A stretch of DNA of 54,066 bases from Dehalococcoidia bacterium (GTDB lineage Bacteria; Chloroflexota; Dehalococcoidia; Dehalococcoidales; W111), in contig DUEU01000071.1 in assembly GCA_011191985.1 (NCBI GenBank), positions 1,283 through 55,348 on the forward strand. Reading direction: 5' to 3'. Below, piece after piece: positions 5,704 to 12,180 of this stretch. How positions within the stretch are numbered: the first letter of the stretch is position 1; the number at the start of each line of letters is the position of its first letter. Position numbers and translations under genes: made by a program. The notes under the pieces are model-generated. The model was not told the DNA's origin, did no database searches, and was given only the letters and a program-made list of their open reading frames with translations.

Positions 5704-6048
5704 CTAGCGGTAGTAGGAGGTCGACTTCTCGAGGCCCGATTGAAGAAGTTTGTCTTCCGCCAGGTAATAATCGCCGTCTTTGGTCATGATTACAATCTCG
5801 GCCCTCATCAGCGAAGCCAAAGCATACTGCTTGTAGTCACGTCCCCGGAACATCCCTTCCAGCATCCCCTTGGGCCTCAGTCCCAGTTCGTCAAGTGACT
5901 TGGCACTGCCGATGCCGACAGCGTTACTCTCCCGGAAAATCCGTATTACCTGCCGCACGGCCCGCTTCAGACGCCATTGGGGAATAAAAATCAGGGCCAG
6001 GAGCATGAGTACAATAGCGGCGATTATCAAAACTACATCATTGTTCAT
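5704..6048 (-). CDS. small membrane-anchored hypothetical protein
   Basis: N-terminal hydrophobic helix plus soluble domain; starts 8 bp after hisB. Confidence 0.65.
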   Translation of the reverse strand: MNNDVVLIIAAIVLMLLALIFIPQWRLKRAVRQVIRIFRESNAVGIGSAKSLDELGLRPKGMLEGMFRGRDYKQYALASLMRAEIVIMTKDGDYYLAEDKLLQSGLEKSTSYYR

Positions 6049-6056
6049 GTTAAACC

Positions 6057-6647
6057 CTAGCTTTCTAACAGGTCCTTAGTGCTGGGCAGATCGCCGGCAA
6101 TCCGCTCGTCTATCTTGGTCGCTGCGTCCAGCGCCCGGCCCAAAGCCTTAAACAGGGCCTCGGCCTTGTGATGGTCATTAGTGCCGTAAGCCACCCGGGC
6201 ATGAAGATTAAGACGGCCTTCAATGGCAAACGACTCCATGAAGTGGCGGATAAGGTCAGTGGGAAATCCGGCCATGTCGTTATCGCTAAAGGACAGGTCC
6301 AAGACCGTGTATCCCCTACCGCCGATGTCAACGGCCACCATCGCCAGGGCGTCATCCATAGGCACGGCAACATCCGCCATCCGGACTATACCGCGTTTTT
6401 CACCCAGGGCTTCGTTAAAGGCCTTACCCAAACAGATAGCAACATCCTCCACCAGGTGGTGCTGGTCATTACCCACGGCTGACAACTTTATGTCGAGTAG
6501 CCCGTGGCGGGCTATCTGCGCTATCAGATGGTCAAAAATTCTGATGCCGGTGTTGGTCTCCCATATTCCGCTACCATCGAGGGCGAGCTCCAGACTGATG
6601 TTAGTTTCCGCTGTCTCGCGTCTGACGACCGCAAGTCTATTTGTCAT
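6057..6647 (-). CDS. hisB: imidazoleglycerol-phosphate dehydratase
   Basis: DQHHLVED and NDHHKAEA metal-binding motifs, PSTK. Confidence 0.97.
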
Positions 6648-7749
6648 CCAACTCCTTCTCTATTTGCTTGAGTACCCTTATCATAACATCAGTGTGCTCC
6701 GGTTTGCCAACACCGAAGCGAAGGGCGTTCTGCAATAGCGGAATATTGAAGTAGCGTATCAGTATCCCCTTTCTCTCAAGTCTTTGCTGGATTTCGTAGG
6801 CGTTACCCTTCAGGACAGAACAGAATACAAAGTTGGCCCAGGACGGATATGGCTTCAGGAAAGATAGCTGGCTCAACTCGGCAAATAGCCTGTCCCTCTC
6901 GGCCACTATAGTCTTCACGTTGTTACGCAGATACTCAAGGTCTTTGAGCGACTCCCGCACCGCAATCTGAGCGGCTATATTTACGTTGTAGGGCTCCTTG
7001 ATCTTCATTACATAGTCAGCGATCTGGGGAGGGAAGATACCATAACCAATCCTCATCCCGGCCAGTCCCGCCCACTTGCTGAAGGTCCGCAGTACCATCA
7101 TATTGTCATACTTACTGGCCAGAGGGACAACGGTTTCCCCGTTGAACTCGACATAGGCCTCGTCCACCAGAACAGGTACCCCGGTCTCCACTATTTCCAG
7201 GATGTCCTCTAGCGGTATCTTGGTGCCGGTGGGATTATTCGGGGTCGCCAGAGGTATCAATCTGGTCCGCGGGGTGATGGCCGCTTTCACAGCCGCGACA
7301 TCGACCATATAATCCTCGTTGCGGGGCACCTCGACCAAGGTGCCGCCGCACAGTTGCGTCCGGTGACGGAAGATATCAAAGGTGGGCACACAGTTTATTA
7401 CCTCATCACCCGGCCCGACAAAAGAGCGCATAATATAGCCTATCAGCTCGTCGCTGCCGTTACCGGCGGCGATACACTCTGGCCTGGCGCCGACATACTC
7501 TGAGAGCATTTTCCTCAGTTCTACCTGCTCGGCATCGGGGTAGATATTAATACTAGAGCACTCGGCCAGTGCCCGCTGGACTCTGGGTGAACAACCGTAA
7601 GGATTTTCATTGGCATCCAGTTTGATGACATCCTTTGTCGCCACCTCCATCTTGCCCTCCAGGGCATCTGGGGCCTTGCTGGCAACGTAGCCACCCAGGG
7701 CAATAATCCAAGGCTTGACCAGCCCTTCTATTCCGATAACCTTACTCAT
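6637..7749 (-). CDS. hisC: histidinol-phosphate aminotransferase (possibly also aromatic aminotransferase)
   Basis: [34 protein letters not shown] lysine; ATG 7749 follows GAGGTGAGG (GTG 7758 is an alternative start). Confidence 0.93.
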
Positions 7750-7816
7750 TTTCCTCACCTCTTATCGCTGATTATTTTTAACCGGTCTATGACCAGCAGT
7801 TTTAATTACGTTCACC

Positions 7817-7844
7817 AAAATAAAATTCCCTCCGCTTGGGAGGG
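7817..7844 (-). terminator. attenuator terminator upstream of hisC
   Basis: Minus strand CCCTCC-CAAGC-GGAGGG followed by AATTTTATTTT. Confidence 0.75.
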
Positions 7845-7896
7845 CTTCTCTTTTAATTTCCGGATTGTCTTATTTCTTTGAGCTATACCATCGACA

Positions 7897-7983
7897 TTAC
7901 ATCAATACCTCCCAAGCGCCGCTGCGCCCAGTAAACGCGAAATAATAATAGTAAGCCTTGTGAACAACTAAATACGCTTTCAT
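7897..7983 (-). CDS. Tyr/Phe-rich attenuation leader peptide, 28 aa (MKAYLVVHKAYYYYFAFTGRSGAWEVLM)
   Basis: Manual translation; four tandem Tyr codons then F-A-F; its 3' part (7908-7918) is an 11-nt perfect complement of the terminator arm and loop (7833-7843). Confidence 0.8.
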   Translation of the reverse strand: MKAYLVVHKAYYYYFAFTGRSGAWEVLM

Positions 7984-8013: not shown

Positions 8014-9357
8014 TCACAACGAGCGTGGTTTGTCAATATCCTGAATCCGCCTTTCCACTGCCCGGGCGTGGGCATCAAGCCCCTCGGCCCGGGCGATGAT
8101 GGCGGCCGCCTGCCCCAGTTGTCCCAGGTCGAACTGGTCAGTATCAACCAGGTTCGTAAGCTTGATGAAACTGCCTACATTAAGTGGTGAGCTGAACCGG
8201 GCCGTGCCGCCGGTGGGCAGAACATGACTTGGCCCGGCCACGTAATCCCCCAGAACCACGGTAGAACCCCGGCCGACAAATACCGTCCCGGCACTGGTTA
8301 TCTTGTTGAGGTGCGCGCTGGCCCGGTCTATCATCAGGCACAGGTGCTCCGGCGCATAGATGTTGGCCAGCTCTATCGCCTCGTCAAGGGTATCAACCAT
8401 GGCAATTATCCCCCTCCTCTCCAGGGACTCGGCGATGGTGGCTTGCCGCGGCAAATCTTTAACCTGCCGCTCAACTTCTCGGTTGACCTCTTCGGCCAAC
8501 CGCCACGAAGTGGTTACCAGAATAGCCGAGGCCAGGGGGTCATGCTCGGCCTGGGCCAGGAGGTCACCGGCACAATACGCAGGGTCGGCCTTTTCATCGG
8601 CGATAATCAAAACCTCGCTCGGGCCCTGCAGCCCATCGATATCCACCACGCCGTAGACCATCTTCTTGGCCAGAACCACGAAGATATTGCCCGGACCACA
8701 AATCTTGTCCACACGGGGGATAGACTCCGTGCCGAAGGCCAGGGCAGCGATGGCTGACGCCCCGCCGACGCAAAATATGCGGTCGACACCGGCAATATCG
8801 GCCGCTACCAGCGTTGCCGGCGGTACTACTCCCTGCGGACCCGGTGGGGTGACCAGCACGACTTCTTCAACCCCGGCCACCCTGGCCGGAACCGCCGTCA
8901 TCAGTACCGTGGACGGGTAGCTGGCAGTACCACCGGGGGCATAGACACCGACCCGCTGCAATGGCCTTATCAACCAGCGCAACTGCTCTTTTTCCGCCTG
9001 GCCCCAGATAATGTGCTTCTGAGCGCTGTGGAAGGCCTGGATTCGCTCCGCAGCCAGCTTCAGGGCCGATACCAGCTCTTCAGCCACCTCGCGGTAGGCG
9101 GCGGTTATCGCTTCCCGGCCTACCTCCAGCGAGGTCAGTTCCAGCCCGTCAATCCGCAGGGCATAATCAAAGAGGGCCGCATCCCCCCGCTCCCGCACTT
9201 CGGCAACAATCTGCCGCACCGCCGCCTCAGGCTCAATCTCCCGGCCGAATATCTGCTTTAGCCTCTCCGCCAGCGCTGGCGAAACCGTATTCAACTCGGC
9301 AAGGGGGGACCGGGTTAACGCCGACTTCGCCGGCTGAAAGCCGTCAATAATAATCAA
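8014..9357 (-). CDS. hisD: histidinol dehydrogenase
   Basis: GVYAPGG, KICGPGN, GPSE, QAEHD, APEHL, GPSHVLPT. Confidence 0.97.
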   Translation of the reverse strand: MIIIDGFQPAKSALTRSPLAELNTVSPALAERLKQIFGREIEPEAAVRQIVAEVRERGDAALFDYALRIDGLELTSLEVGREAITAAYREVAEELVSALKLAAERIQAFHSAQKHIIWGQAEKEQLRWLIRPLQRVGVYAPGGTASYPSTVLMTAVPARVAGVEEVVLVTPPGPQGVVPPATLVAADIAGVDRIFCVGGASAIAALAFGTESIPRVDKICGPGNIFVVLAKKMVYGVVDIDGLQGPSEVLIIADEKADPAYCAGDLLAQAEHDPLASAILVTTSWRLAEEVNREVERQVKDLPRQATIAESLERRGIIAMVDTLDEAIELANIYAPEHLCLMIDRASAHLNKITSAGTVFVGRGSTVVLGDYVAGPSHVLPTGGTARFSSPLNVGSFIKLTNLVDTDQFDLGQLGQAAAIIARAEGLDAHARAVERRIQDIDKPRSL

Positions 9358-9358
9358 A

Positions 9359-10777
9359 TCACGCCTCCACTGCTGCCTTCAGGGTAGCCATAATCGCCTT
9401 TATCCGTTTCCTTTTTTTCGGGCTGGCAACAGCGACAGTGCTGCCAACCAGGCAGGCCGTTGACTCGAAAAGACGGTCGATAATACGAAGGTTATGACGG
9501 GAAATCGTCCGTCCCGTCTGGGTATTCTCGATAAGTAAATCGGCGTCTTCCGGCAGAAAGCCTTCGCTGGCCCCCCAGGTCGGCACCACCCGATACCAGC
9601 CGAGGTGGTTATCCCGGGCATACTTATCAGCAATATTAACGTATTCCGAGGCTACCCGTAACGGAAGCTGCCATTCCCGGCTGAGCTTTCCCAGGTCCTC
9701 AACACTGTCAACAACCAGACTTTTGCTGATGACCGCGACGATTTTTACCCCACCAAAGCCAAGGCCCAGAAGCTCGGTGACCGGGCTGGACGGGAACTGG
9801 TAGAGATGCTCCGTCAGCCAATCGCGGCCAGTGATGGCCAAGTCAAAATTCCCATTGGCAACCTGCGAGGGCATATCCTGGGGCCTTATCACCTTAATCC
9901 TGACCCCTTCCAGCTTAGAGGTCGGCCGGCGATTACCGGATGGAGACGGGTAATCGTCAATCTCAATACCAGCCCTGGTTAAAAGGTCAAAAGTGGGCTG
10001 CTGCTGGTGCCCGTCGGGCAAGGCCAGCCAGACGGTATCTTCAGCCAGCGGCCCCACACCGGAACCGTCTTTCTTTGCCGGCGACTTCACCTGGTCGCTC
10101 CGGGGAGTGGCATCCTCACTCCCGGCAAGGCTATGGTAAATTGAGGTCAGCACCTGGCGCATATCCCTAGACTCCCAGCTGTTTTTATTGGCTATCAGAA
10201 AAGCGCTGGAACGGAGGGTCTTGCTCACCGACAGCAGTCCATAGTCAACCAGCTGATCCTCGGTATCCACCGGGATTAAGGCCAGGTCAGCGCCCTCTGG
10301 GGGATATACCTCGGCCGCTCCCCATACCGGGAATATGCTGAAGCGCCTCAGCCGCAGCCGGACGGCAAACGATTCGGCCAGATTGGGATACTCACTGGCG
10401 ATGCGGACAGTGTCCGGCCTCGCCCGTAACCGGGCCAGAGCAGCCGTCCCTGCCGAGCGGCTGGCGGTCATGAGCAGGCTGCTTCGACCGTACCCCAGCT
10501 CTTTTACCTTGACCAGGTTGCTGCTGGGGTACCGGGACAGGAGTTCTTCAATCCAATCCCGTCCGCAGATGCCCAGGTCATAGTTGGCCACGGCTACCTG
10601 AACCGGGATATCCTTTTCATGGAATACCTTTATCGCCAGTTCGGGAAACCTAGTGGACTCGAGACGATAAGACGATGCCCCCTGATGGTAGCCGCTGATT
10701 CCCCAGCCGGCGTTATCGAGCAACCTGGCCGTCTGATTGAGCAGACGTCCCTTAGGCAGCGCCAGCTTTATCGGCAC
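9359..10777 (-). CDS. hisG: ATP phosphoribosyltransferase with two tandem short-form HisG domains
   Basis: Two repeats: ALPKGRL..KDIP..DLGICGRD..ASEYPN..GAAE and ALPDGHQ..QDMP..DLAITGRD..ASEYVN..GASE..QTGRT. Confidence 0.88.
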   Translation of the reverse strand: MPIKLALPKGRLLNQTARLLDNAGWGISGYHQGASSYRLESTRFPELAIKVFHEKDIPVQVAVANYDLGICGRDWIEELLSRYPSSNLVKVKELGYGRSSLLMTASRSAGTAALARLRARPDTVRIASEYPNLAESFAVRLRLRRFSIFPVWGAAEVYPPEGADLALIPVDTEDQLVDYGLLSVSKTLRSSAFLIANKNSWESRDMRQVLTSIYHSLAGSEDATPRSDQVKSPAKKDGSGVGPLAEDTVWLALPDGHQQQPTFDLLTRAGIEIDDYPSPSGNRRPTSKLEGVRIKVIRPQDMPSQVANGNFDLAITGRDWLTEHLYQFPSSPVTELLGLGFGGVKIVAVISKSLVVDSVEDLGKLSREWQLPLRVASEYVNIADKYARDNHLGWYRVVPTWGASEGFLPEDADLLIENTQTGRTISRHNLRIIDRLFESTACLVGSTVAVASPKKRKRIKAIMATLKAAVEA

Positions 10778-12014
10778 CTTTTCCCTCCAGCAAGGCTAAG
10801 ACCTCGGTCGTACTCTGCACTTCGTGTCTTTTCTGCCCGAGCCGGTCAGTAAGAACAAACCGGTCGGGCCCGACTTCCAGGGCCCAGCCAAAATCAGCCG
10901 ACTCCCGGGTACCAAGGTCAAGCTCGGCGATGTATCCGGCCTCACGCAGTTCGCTGACAATACCGAATCCCGGCTTCAGTGCCCGTGACTCATCAGCAGT
11001 AAAGGTAACCAGAACCCGCTGTGCCAGGGGCTGACTCAGGACCTCCGGCGGCAATTGGTTCATCAGCCGGTCAAGGTAAAGGGCAAAACCCGAGGCGGGC
11101 ACATTCTGGCCACCCAACAGCGGTATCAAGGCATCATAGCGTCCCCCGCCGCCTATCTTTTCCCCATTCAGGAATAGCTGGAAGGTCATGCCGGTGTAGT
11201 ACTCAAAGCCAGTGCCGGCGGTAATATCAATATGGTAATCATAACCCAGGGTGTCTAGCAGGCTGACCACCTCAATAAAGTCATCTACATGCGTTTCGAG
11301 CCGGGGCAGTTCATGATTAAACAGCGCCTTGAAGTTATGCAGAAAGCCAGATGATTTGCCCTTAAGGTCGAGCAATTGGGACATTACCCTGCCCAGTTCC
11401 GGGCTCTTTGGCTTTATCCTGGCCAGCGCGGCCGTGTCACCGCCCAGAATCTGGTCAAACACCTTTATCTGCTCACTGCGGCTCAACCCGAGCTCCTCAA
11501 GCAGGGTCCTTATCAGGCCAACGTGCGACAACCTCAGCTCTACCGTGCCTATCCGCAGCTTACTCAGCACTTCACGGGCTAGCGTTATCAGCTCTACATC
11601 GGCCAAGGCAGAACCAGCACCGATAAGTTCGGCGCCACACTGCCAGCGTTCCCGCGATTCGGCACCGGTCTCCTCAAACATAAAGACATTGGCAATATAG
11701 AAAAGCTTGGCCAGTGCCGTACTTTCCATACCTTCAATATAGAGCCGGGCGACAGGGATGGTGCCATCGGGCCTCAGGACAACCCGCTCGCCGCTCCAAC
11801 CATCCCAGTCCAAAAAGGAGTATACACGGCGCAAGGTACCCGGTGTAAGCGTTCCCGCTGCCGTAAACAGGTGGAGGTACTCAACGGTCGGCGTTCTTGC
11901 TTCCTCATAGCCCGCTTTAAGGCAACAGTCCCGGAATGTCTCCTCAATGTGGCGAAACCGCCGCATATCTCCGGGGGATAGGTCACGGCTGCCCTTGCAT
12001 CTCTGAATTTTCAC
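10752..12014 (-). CDS. hisZ: ATP phosphoribosyltransferase regulatory subunit (HisRS-like)
   Basis: VLRPDGTIPVAR, QCGAELIG, EYYTG, GGGRYD; overlaps hisG; GTG 12014 follows GAGGGTGA. Confidence 0.85.
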   Translation of the reverse strand: MKIQRCKGSRDLSPGDMRRFRHIEETFRDCCLKAGYEEARTPTVEYLHLFTAAGTLTPGTLRRVYSFLDWDGWSGERVVLRPDGTIPVARLYIEGMESTALAKLFYIANVFMFEETGAESRERWQCGAELIGAGSALADVELITLAREVLSKLRIGTVELRLSHVGLIRTLLEELGLSRSEQIKVFDQILGGDTAALARIKPKSPELGRVMSQLLDLKGKSSGFLHNFKALFNHELPRLETHVDDFIEVVSLLDTLGYDYHIDITAGTGFEYYTGMTFQLFLNGEKIGGGGRYDALIPLLGGQNVPASGFALYLDRLMNQLPPEVLSQPLAQRVLVTFTADESRALKPGFGIVSELREAGYIAELDLGTRESADFGWALEVGPDRFVLTDRLGQKRHEVQSTTEVLALLEGKGADKAGAA

Positions 12015-12180
12015 ATCACCCTCTCTACAGTAGCCGATAAATTTTACACCATACGCCATAGCTATTCAACCGGGCCCTGCCGCTATTGATACGGTGCCCT
12101 TGACAACTCCCACCTCCATTGCAATGATACCTCAAGCCCGATATGATATAATGAATATAAATTCAGGGATAAACTAAAAC

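Follow-up and report, generated by a model that had tools for sequence, protein, structure and literature searches.

A putative aromatic amino acid attenuator ahead of hisC and hisB in a Dehalococcoidia histidine operon, and the Dehalococcoidales RNA family to which it belongs

We analysed a 54,066-nt stretch of DNA (hereafter the window) from a Dehalococcoidia bacterium (assembly GCA_011191985.1, contig DUEU01000071.1; we call this source genome G000) and concentrated on the 255-nt gap that separates hisD from hisC in its histidine operon. Coordinates are window positions, and all the relevant genes are on the minus strand. Upstream of the gap lies hisD (8014-9357), which encodes histidinol dehydrogenase (TIGR00069, 509.1 bits for a cut-off of 243.8). 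Downstream lie hisC (6637-7758), encoding histidinol-phosphate aminotransferase (TIGR01141, 322.2 bits for a cut-off of 276.55; Pfam Aminotran_1_2), and hisB (6057-6647), encoding imidazoleglycerol-phosphate dehydratase (NF002116, 294.5 bits for a cut-off of 269). Together with hisG, all these genes score above the curated NCBIfam cut-offs. The start of hisC may be a GTG at 7758 or an ATG at 7749, and the latter, which is preceded by AAGAGGUGAGGAAA, is the likely one. Since hisB overlaps hisC by 11 nt, the two genes are presumably co-transcribed. A first-pass annotation, made from the sequence alone, had proposed that the gap holds a Tyr/Phe-responsive attenuator. We find there, in this order, a promoter-like site, a leader open reading frame (ORF), a hairpin between segments 1 and 2 (1:2), an antiterminator between segments 2 and 3 (2:3) and a terminator between segments 3 and 4 (3:4), followed by hisC and hisB.

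The promoter-like site (8036-8008) straddles the stop codon of hisD (8016-8014). It consists of TTGACA (8036-8031), a 17-nt spacer and a TG-extended TAAACT (8013-8008), with 10 matches out of 12. The leader ORF (7983-7897) has 28 codons and a stop, and encodes MKAYLVVHKAYYYYFAFTGRSGAWEVLM; its composition of five Tyr, two Phe, one Trp and one His is the one given by the first-pass annotation. The aromatic residues are concentrated in a regulatory block, YYYYFAF (7953-7933), in which six codons out of seven are aromatic: TAC TAT TAT TAT (7953-7942), TTC (7941-7939), GCG and TTT (7935-7933). The lone His codon, CAC (7962-7960), stands three codons ahead of the Tyr run. Past the block comes segment 1 (CUGGGCGC, 7931-7924), the 5' strand of the 1:2 hairpin, and then segment 2 (7919-7908), which can pair either with segment 1, through 7919-7912, or with segment 3, as CGCUUGGGAGG (7918-7908). 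The 1:2 hairpin (7931-7924/7919-7912; -11.0 kcal/mol) thus occupies the 5' portion of the strand that forms the antiterminator. The leader stop codon (7899-7897) begins 9 nt after segment 2. The terminator hairpin (7844-7828) is made of CCCUCC (7844-7839), the loop CAAGC (7838-7834) and GGAGGG (7833-7828), and was retrieved by a terminator scan as a stem of 6 bp, five of them G-C, with a loop of 5. The stem is followed by AATTTTATTTT, which ends at 7817, the U-rich tail being AAUUUUAUUUU (7827-7817), and 58 nt separate the end of this tract from the first possible start of hisC (GTG 7758). On the opposite strand, the hairpin at 7826-7844 also scores as a terminator, with CTTCTCTTTT after it, and may be bidirectional, although no gene on the plus strand terminates in the vicinity.

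The first-pass annotation had also reported a perfect 11-nt pairing with the 5' arm and loop of this terminator. The pairing is exact. CGCTTGGGAGG (7918-7908) is the reverse complement, over 11 nt, of CCTCCCAAGCG (7843-7833, segment 3), which spans the last 5 nt of the terminator 5' arm, all of the loop and the first nucleotide of the 3' arm. The resulting antiterminator duplex has 11 bp and an energy of -23.6 kcal/mol. No longer perfect complement exists between the terminator and the 164 nt that precede it. When this upstream region was shuffled with its dinucleotide composition preserved, none of 20,000 shuffles reached 11 nt, the best of them attaining 10 nt (9 of 20,000). Hence, the complement is non-random.

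Plain blastn of the gap matched only 7 of 40 relatives, in which we observed similar Tyr-rich ORFs and a near-identical terminator, mostly before a gene other than hisC. A covariance model was needed to reveal the family. This model, R1, was built from seven copies, including that of G000, with the 1:2 hairpin and the terminator as its structure. The G000 element matches it over model positions 1-142 with 124.5 bits (E = 4.4e-17), by construction since it is a seed member. The match is full-length and covers the aromatic codon block, the 1:2 hairpin, the GGGAGG strand and the CCCUCC...GGAGGG terminator; it is the single copy in G000 at E ≤ 1. At E ≤ 0.01, R1 matches were found in 121 of the 151 sampled Dehalococcoidales genomes (67 of the 82 high-quality ones), so that 120 genomes besides G000 support the family independently, and many of the genomes of this order carry two to four copies. 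In a class-wide sample, 5 of 151 genomes matched: G000, three genomes of the same order and one labelled as lying outside it. The latter genome (G293) has two copies, with E-values of 2.6e-6 (L196) and 9.4e-6 (L200). A scan of the genomes of 185,579 species for the exact pattern returned 33 loci which, judging by their titles, belong to Dehalococcoidales or Dehalococcoidia (25), other Chloroflexota (5) and other phyla (3). The family is not represented in Rfam. Around the element, Rfam gave five matches at E ≤ 10, all to eukaryotic families far below threshold and none to a bacterial leader or riboswitch, and at gathering scores it gave no match anywhere in the window. A search of the literature on leader peptides and attenuation in Dehalococcoid* found no description of it either. 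These results show that the element belongs to a conserved RNA family that spans the order Dehalococcoidales.

We then compared 148 copies, i.e. the 30 best loci and 118 fetched stretches, leaving out weaker matches. The leader starts with ATG in 143 of the 148, at a median of 28 nt before the start of the model. Its stop codon lies at a median of 9 nt past segment 2 (more than 15 nt past it in 31% of 142 copies) and, in all 148 copies, before the end of the terminator. A promoter-like site was present in 116 copies, as opposed to 146 of 2,960 shuffles (4.9%); 101 of these sites are TG-extended and they stand at a fixed distance (median 54 nt). Over the 30 best copies, 95.4% of the alignment cells that make up the 1:2 hairpin and the terminator are paired, and four pairs have undergone compensatory changes, a count equalled by 1 of 500 shuffles. 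In the set of 30 relatives, the terminator stem is paired in 100% of the cells, and four of the seven modelled pairs of segment 1 show compensatory changes.

The antiterminator is paired in 96.3% of the cells in the 30 closest copies and in only 65-67% when the alignment is slid by one column. For this duplex, we replaced column-wise covariation by a comparison of matched and swapped duplexes in 130 copies, adding 100 more divergent ones to the 30. Segment 2 paired with the terminator half of its own copy has a mean energy of -20.1 kcal/mol, as against -18.2 kcal/mol when partners are swapped, and 5,000 permutations gave no value as low; since copies that are related lack independence, we take this as support and not as a probability. 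Some copies show the compensation directly. In one (L138), CACCCGGGAGG stands opposite CCUCCCGGGUG, with several bases compensated, and in another (L044) UGCUUGAGGGG stands opposite CCCUCUCAAGCA and the 3' arm is altered too. A regular expression did not place the segments in divergent copies (92 of 148 for segment 2), and we used the model-based alignments instead. In sum, the leader ORF, the terminator and the antiterminator are kept across the order and the antiterminator partners covary, which is the conservation in relatives that the attenuator proposal called for. The same test led us to reject another candidate structure, a long helix seen in the best fold of G000, in which the Tyr-codon region pairs with the linker that follows the stop codon. 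In the 130 copies, its own pairs average -7.42 kcal/mol and swapped ones -7.18 kcal/mol, 514 of 5,000 permutations are as low and the mean z relative to shuffles is -0.04.

The genes downstream of the 148 copies were classified by blastp to 13 representatives, one per class, named by Pfam or NCBIfam. The first gene is most often a 3-deoxy-D-arabino-heptulosonate 7-phosphate (DAHP) synthase (87 copies), followed by a first type of AMP-binding ligase (21), hisC (8), a family III CoA-transferase (7), aroB (6), a second type of AMP-binding ligase (4), pheS (3) and a protein with a metallo-beta-lactamase fold (3). Octopine-dehydrogenase-like and DctP-type binding proteins account for two copies each, and 2-hydroxyacyl-CoA dehydratase D, a PPDK-like protein and an AAA ATPase for one each; the contig ends downstream of the remaining two. 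Most copies thus precede genes of aromatic pathways, in line with the aromatic link that had been suggested for the hisC leader.

The codons of the leader follow the gene. The family consensus, directly 5' of segment 1, is YYxYFxF, and leaders usually hold three to nine Tyr codons. Those before DAHP synthase and hisC have a median of four Tyr and two Phe; those before pheS have zero to one Tyr and three to five Phe; those before the type 2 ligase and DctP have 3-11 Tyr and no Phe; and those before the type 1 ligase retain chiefly an F-x-F pair. This is what one expects of a translational sensor of amino acids that has been copied and re-coded. The three pheS leaders that are Phe-only (L052, L064 and L092, in genomes G126, G070 and G035; e.g. 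MKYNTSFQFNFNFMFTGR) have their stop codon inside the loop of the 1:2 hairpin. One Tyr-rich leader (MSLYVAYHPYYYMYFMFTGCARHAWGQFV; L013, in genome G004) precedes an AAA/MoxR-like ATPase, which has no obvious link with aromatic amino acids. Further copies precede CoA-transferase, dehydratase, ligase, DctP, metallo-beta-lactamase and PPDK-like genes (L028, L048, L085, L114, L118, L130, L150, L131, L201, L099 and others). One may speculate that these genes mark an unrecognised route by which these anaerobes salvage aryl acids to Tyr and Phe.

The position between hisD and hisC is not peculiar to G000. Among the 148 copies, it was observed in two genomes of family f1 (G000 and G001) and six of family f39, with hisD upstream wherever there was enough sequence and hisB seen downstream. 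A search of f39 gave R1 matches in 28 of 30 genomes. We read 23 new loci from it, of which 15, all from different genomes, lie between hisD and hisC. The hisD-leader-hisC(-hisB) layout thus occurs in 23 genomes of two families. In these leaders, a His codon precedes the Tyr run by zero to three codons in 22 of 23 cases, as compared with 13 of 148 other leaders, and the non-hisC leaders of the same f39 genomes are without it. The residues that flank the His vary while the His itself is retained. The Fisher value for this enrichment, 1e-17, is overstated, as the hisC copies probably share one ancestor.

What HisC does in these bacteria bears on the meaning of this placement. In Bacillus subtilis and Thermotoga maritima, HisC has two functions, as a histidinol-phosphate and as an aromatic aminotransferase (PMC9309667), and the substrate order of the Mycobacterium tuberculosis HisC is Hsp > Tyr > Phe (PMC4703992). 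G000 has only four Pfam class I/II aminotransferase genes, namely an AspC-like one, DapL, HisC and one beside a cobD-like ORF, a neighbour identified by eye only. The layout, the small number of aminotransferases and the published bifunctional enzymes together make it plausible that Tyr and Phe are produced by HisC in this organism and that a shortage of them induces the enzyme.

The DAHP synthase gene of G000 has no R1-type leader and starts 36 nt after trpF. Nor was a leader seen in the 420 nt upstream of the G000 orthologues of DAHP synthase, pheS, CoA-transferase and ligase, in an assembly that is 95% complete and comprises 97 contigs. The locus in question (contig C28; L228 492-6419, minus strand) reads trpE(partial)-trpG-trpD-trpC-trpF-DAHP synthase-aroB and runs off the contig end at trpE. 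All five f39 genomes tested have a DAHP synthase gene, and none of the f39 leader copies examined precedes one, in a survey of the leaders that did not extend to the sequence upstream of those genes. A further reading has the aromatic attenuator of f1 and f39 placed at hisC, within the histidine operon, as a hybrid sensor suited to a bifunctional enzyme, where the Tyr/Phe block and the conserved His codon would together signal when any one of the three amino acids that require HisC for their synthesis runs short. We put this forward tentatively, as a possibility that has the odds against it. If a stall at any codon upstream relieves termination, a single His codon could make the leader partly responsive to histidine, which would soften the oddity of finding a histidine-only gene, hisB, behind an aromatic sensor. 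The first-pass annotation had held that the genes respond to starvation for aromatic amino acids rather than for histidine. The aromatic half of this claim agrees with the codons and the genes of the family; the words 'rather than' may be too strong given the His codon kept by the hisC-type leaders.

We interpret the element, with a probability of roughly 85%, as a ribosome-mediated transcription attenuator that works through a leader peptide, has its own promoter and controls hisC and the overlapping hisB. Under this interpretation, transcription would start a few bases past the -10 box (8013-8008), with possible additional read-through from hisD, and the 28-codon leader would be translated while the RNA polymerase proceeds. 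With charged tRNA-Tyr and tRNA-Phe in plentiful supply, the ribosome would reach the stop codon and cover segment 2. Segment 3 would then pair with segment 4 as a terminator and transcription would end at the U-tract, at about 7825-7817. A ribosome stalled on YYYYFAF would instead leave segment 2 free to form 11 bp with the 5' arm and the loop of the terminator, and this antiterminator would block termination and let hisC and hisB be transcribed. The expression of the two genes would thus probably be tied to the supply of aromatic amino acids.

The scheme was examined by folding computations. The two conformers that the first-pass annotation asked to be folded are nearly iso-energetic in G000, at -41.8 kcal/mol for the terminator and -40.0 kcal/mol for the enforced antiterminator. 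When the RNA was refolded with a ribosome footprint masked at the leader stop codon, the terminator formed, as had been predicted. When the A site of the footprint was set at the second Phe codon instead, the antiterminator formed. In folds of the growing naked transcript, the antiterminator (7-11 pairs) is the best structure for every 3' end from 7836 to 7822, and the terminator fold wins only after the U-tract emerges, by 0.7 kcal/mol. This suggests that the antiterminator prevails by default, except when segment 2 is covered by a ribosome close to the stop codon. On this view, stalling at any codon upstream would suffice. The 1:2 hairpin may be a pause or protector element. Because it covers only part of segment 2, an untranslated leader may, on these models, be read through rather than super-attenuated.

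Several observations weigh against the attenuator, or against Tyr as its signal. The best fold keeps the 1:2 hairpin and the terminator when the footprint lies on the first or the fourth Tyr codon or on the first Phe codon. The Tyr codons are 11-22 nt too far upstream for the footprint alone to unmask segment 2, and simple masking would thus favour Phe over Tyr as the stall codon. The default antiterminator of the growing transcript was obtained in only 88 of 144 family members. The claim that a stall on the Tyr run frees the antiterminator agrees with the folds of the growing G000 transcript and not with the equilibrium folds, where only the second Phe flips the structure. The Shine-Dalgarno sequence of the leader is weak, with only GAG-type purines before the ATG in G000 and a loose purine motif in 64 of the 148 copies. 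The whole gap folds unremarkably (z = -1.17, with 26 of 200 shuffles as stable). In the 30 closest copies, the antiterminator is nearly invariant. A single pair is changed on both sides, and the column-wise covariation of the helix is not above that of shuffles (84/500 and 63/500). Our script for calling leaders picks the frame that is richest in aromatic codons and biases the lists of peptides somewhat; this choice does not explain an in-frame ATG at a fixed distance. In physiological terms, hisB is specific to histidine synthesis and its control by Tyr and Phe would be odd. Finally, aroR, the F-Y-F leader of the aroF (DAHP synthase) operon of Corynebacterium glutamicum, responded to limitation of Phe and not to the availability of Tyr (Neshat et al. 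2014, as summarised in PMC11802643). Hence, Tyr codons alone do not prove the sensing of Tyr.

Some of these observations would be natural for a general sensor of translation speed or of several amino acids, where any hungry codon (His included) or any slowdown relieves termination. Such a sensor would fit an antiterminator that forms by default whenever segment 2 is uncovered, Tyr codons that are too distant to act by footprint, and the nearly universal His codon of the hisC-type leaders. We nevertheless find it improbable, because a non-specific sensor has no need of a tuned make-up of Tyr and Phe codons: the block is rich in both, and its composition tracks the gene, being Phe-only before pheS and Tyr-only before the type 2 ligase and DctP. 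A second alternative, distinctly less probable, is an RNA switch operated by a protein or a ligand that binds the conserved GGGCGCAC...GUGCGCUUGGGAGG hairpin, with the ORF being incidental. The weak ribosome-binding site of the leader would agree with this, as would the sequence of the hairpin and of segment 2, which is conserved beyond what pairing needs. Yet an incidental ORF should not keep an ATG and a constant geometry in 143 of 148 copies, all ending before the terminator, nor should it carry in-frame aromatic codons at a fixed distance whose identity tracks the class of the gene; Rfam, moreover, gave no match to a riboswitch, T-box or protein-binding leader.

The ORF might also encode a functional small protein and sense nothing, which the recurrence of the peptide motif FTFTGRTRCAWEALV in many copies could suggest. 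We consider this highly unlikely in view of how the conserved sequence is read. The stretch GUGCGCUUGGG(A/G)GG is translated as C-A-W-E/G in many copies and as V-R-L-G-G or A-L-G-G in others. For example, the same RNA, GUGCGCUUGGGGGG, yields CAWG in some copies and VRLGG in others, and in several copies the ORF ends within the loop of the hairpin, as does the FTGR-stop of pheS leaders. Because the same RNA is read in different frames, the comparison of copies indicates that selection at this stretch is on the RNA and not on the C-terminal peptide. The chance of the gap being a mere hisD terminator followed by a hisC promoter, with the ORF and the 11-nt complement arising fortuitously, is close to nil: the gap folds no better than its shuffles and holds about as many terminator-like hairpins as they do (7 found, 6.4 expected), but the shuffles never reproduce the complement, the promoter sits upstream of the terminator and not past it, and the module recurs in most of the sampled genomes of the order, mostly before DAHP synthase and not after hisD.

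The attenuator proposed here has well-known counterparts. The leaders of Escherichia coli consist, as here, of a short ORF with a run of regulating codons, an intrinsic terminator and a mutually exclusive antiterminator that is covered by the ribosome at the stop codon. The element can be likened to the archetype trpL and to pheL-pheA and pheM-pheST, the last two being named in PMC11802643. Like pheM-pheST, the family includes a Phe-only version before pheS. Unlike these leaders, with which it has no relationship in sequence or in Rfam, it has a mixed Tyr/Phe block, targets hisC-hisB in a histidine operon and has a 1:2 hairpin that covers only part of segment 2. The mechanism is thus a textbook one (trpL, pheL, pheM), and it is its placement inside a histidine operon that is unusual.

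Closer parallels exist for the aromatic targets. The aroR leader, as described in PMC11802643, also combines Phe and Tyr codons, a gene of the aromatic pathway and ribosome stalling, and most members of our family likewise precede a DAHP synthase. It differs in coming from another phylum and in having F-Y-F only where three to nine Tyr are usual here, in a comparison that is by description. The uORFC-13-1 motif, found upstream of aroF in Acholeplasma, resembles the family in being a candidate attenuator made of an upstream ORF and a terminator, placed before DAHP synthase and known from comparative genomics. PMC8632094 links it to the rate at which phenylalanine is incorporated and gives as its only sources Acholeplasma and environmental sequences whose origin is unknown; the text contains no mention of Dehalococcoid- or Chloroflex-. 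A different kind of precedent comes from gene position, where a HisC-family aminotransferase is under aromatic control in a way that fits a dual role. In the aromatic supraoperon of Bacillus subtilis, hisC stands among aro, trp and tyr genes, and it is controlled by this position and by TRAP and promoter regulation, not by a Tyr/Phe leader peptide. In the bacteria studied here, hisC has remained part of the his operon, with the aromatic element inserted before it.

If our interpretation is correct, the locus offers a concrete and testable example of control across pathways, in which a pair of histidine-operon genes is gated by the supply of aromatic amino acids, and it predicts that these anaerobes with small genomes use HisC as their Tyr/Phe aminotransferase. 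What is new here is the position before hisC-hisB conserved in two families, the His codon and the table of the regulon across the order. To our knowledge, leader attenuators rich in Tyr have barely been documented by experiment. The present family is a large one that lies outside Rfam, occurs in about 80% of the sampled Dehalococcoidales genomes and swaps its codon blocks between Tyr, Phe and mixed forms according to the gene. It would provide a ready marker of the genes that supply aromatic amino acids in a lineage whose members are mostly uncultured.

Other features of the histidine operon were recorded on the same strand. Directly after hisB, a 114-aa ORF (5704-6048) has a hydrophobic N-terminus; NCBIfam gave no match to it at E ≤ 1e-5. 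At the other end, hisG is preceded by a HisS/HisZ-like paralogue (10752-12059), which overlaps it by 26 nt and falls under both curated cut-offs (hisS, 214.8 for 286.75; hisZ, 207.2 for 271.65). The region upstream of this gene (12060-12180), inspected by eye, showed no His-rich leader or other element. The hisG gene itself (9359-10777; 472 aa) has two stretches that match the 183-position hisG model, and its product looks like a tandem-duplicated short-form ATP phosphoribosyltransferase.

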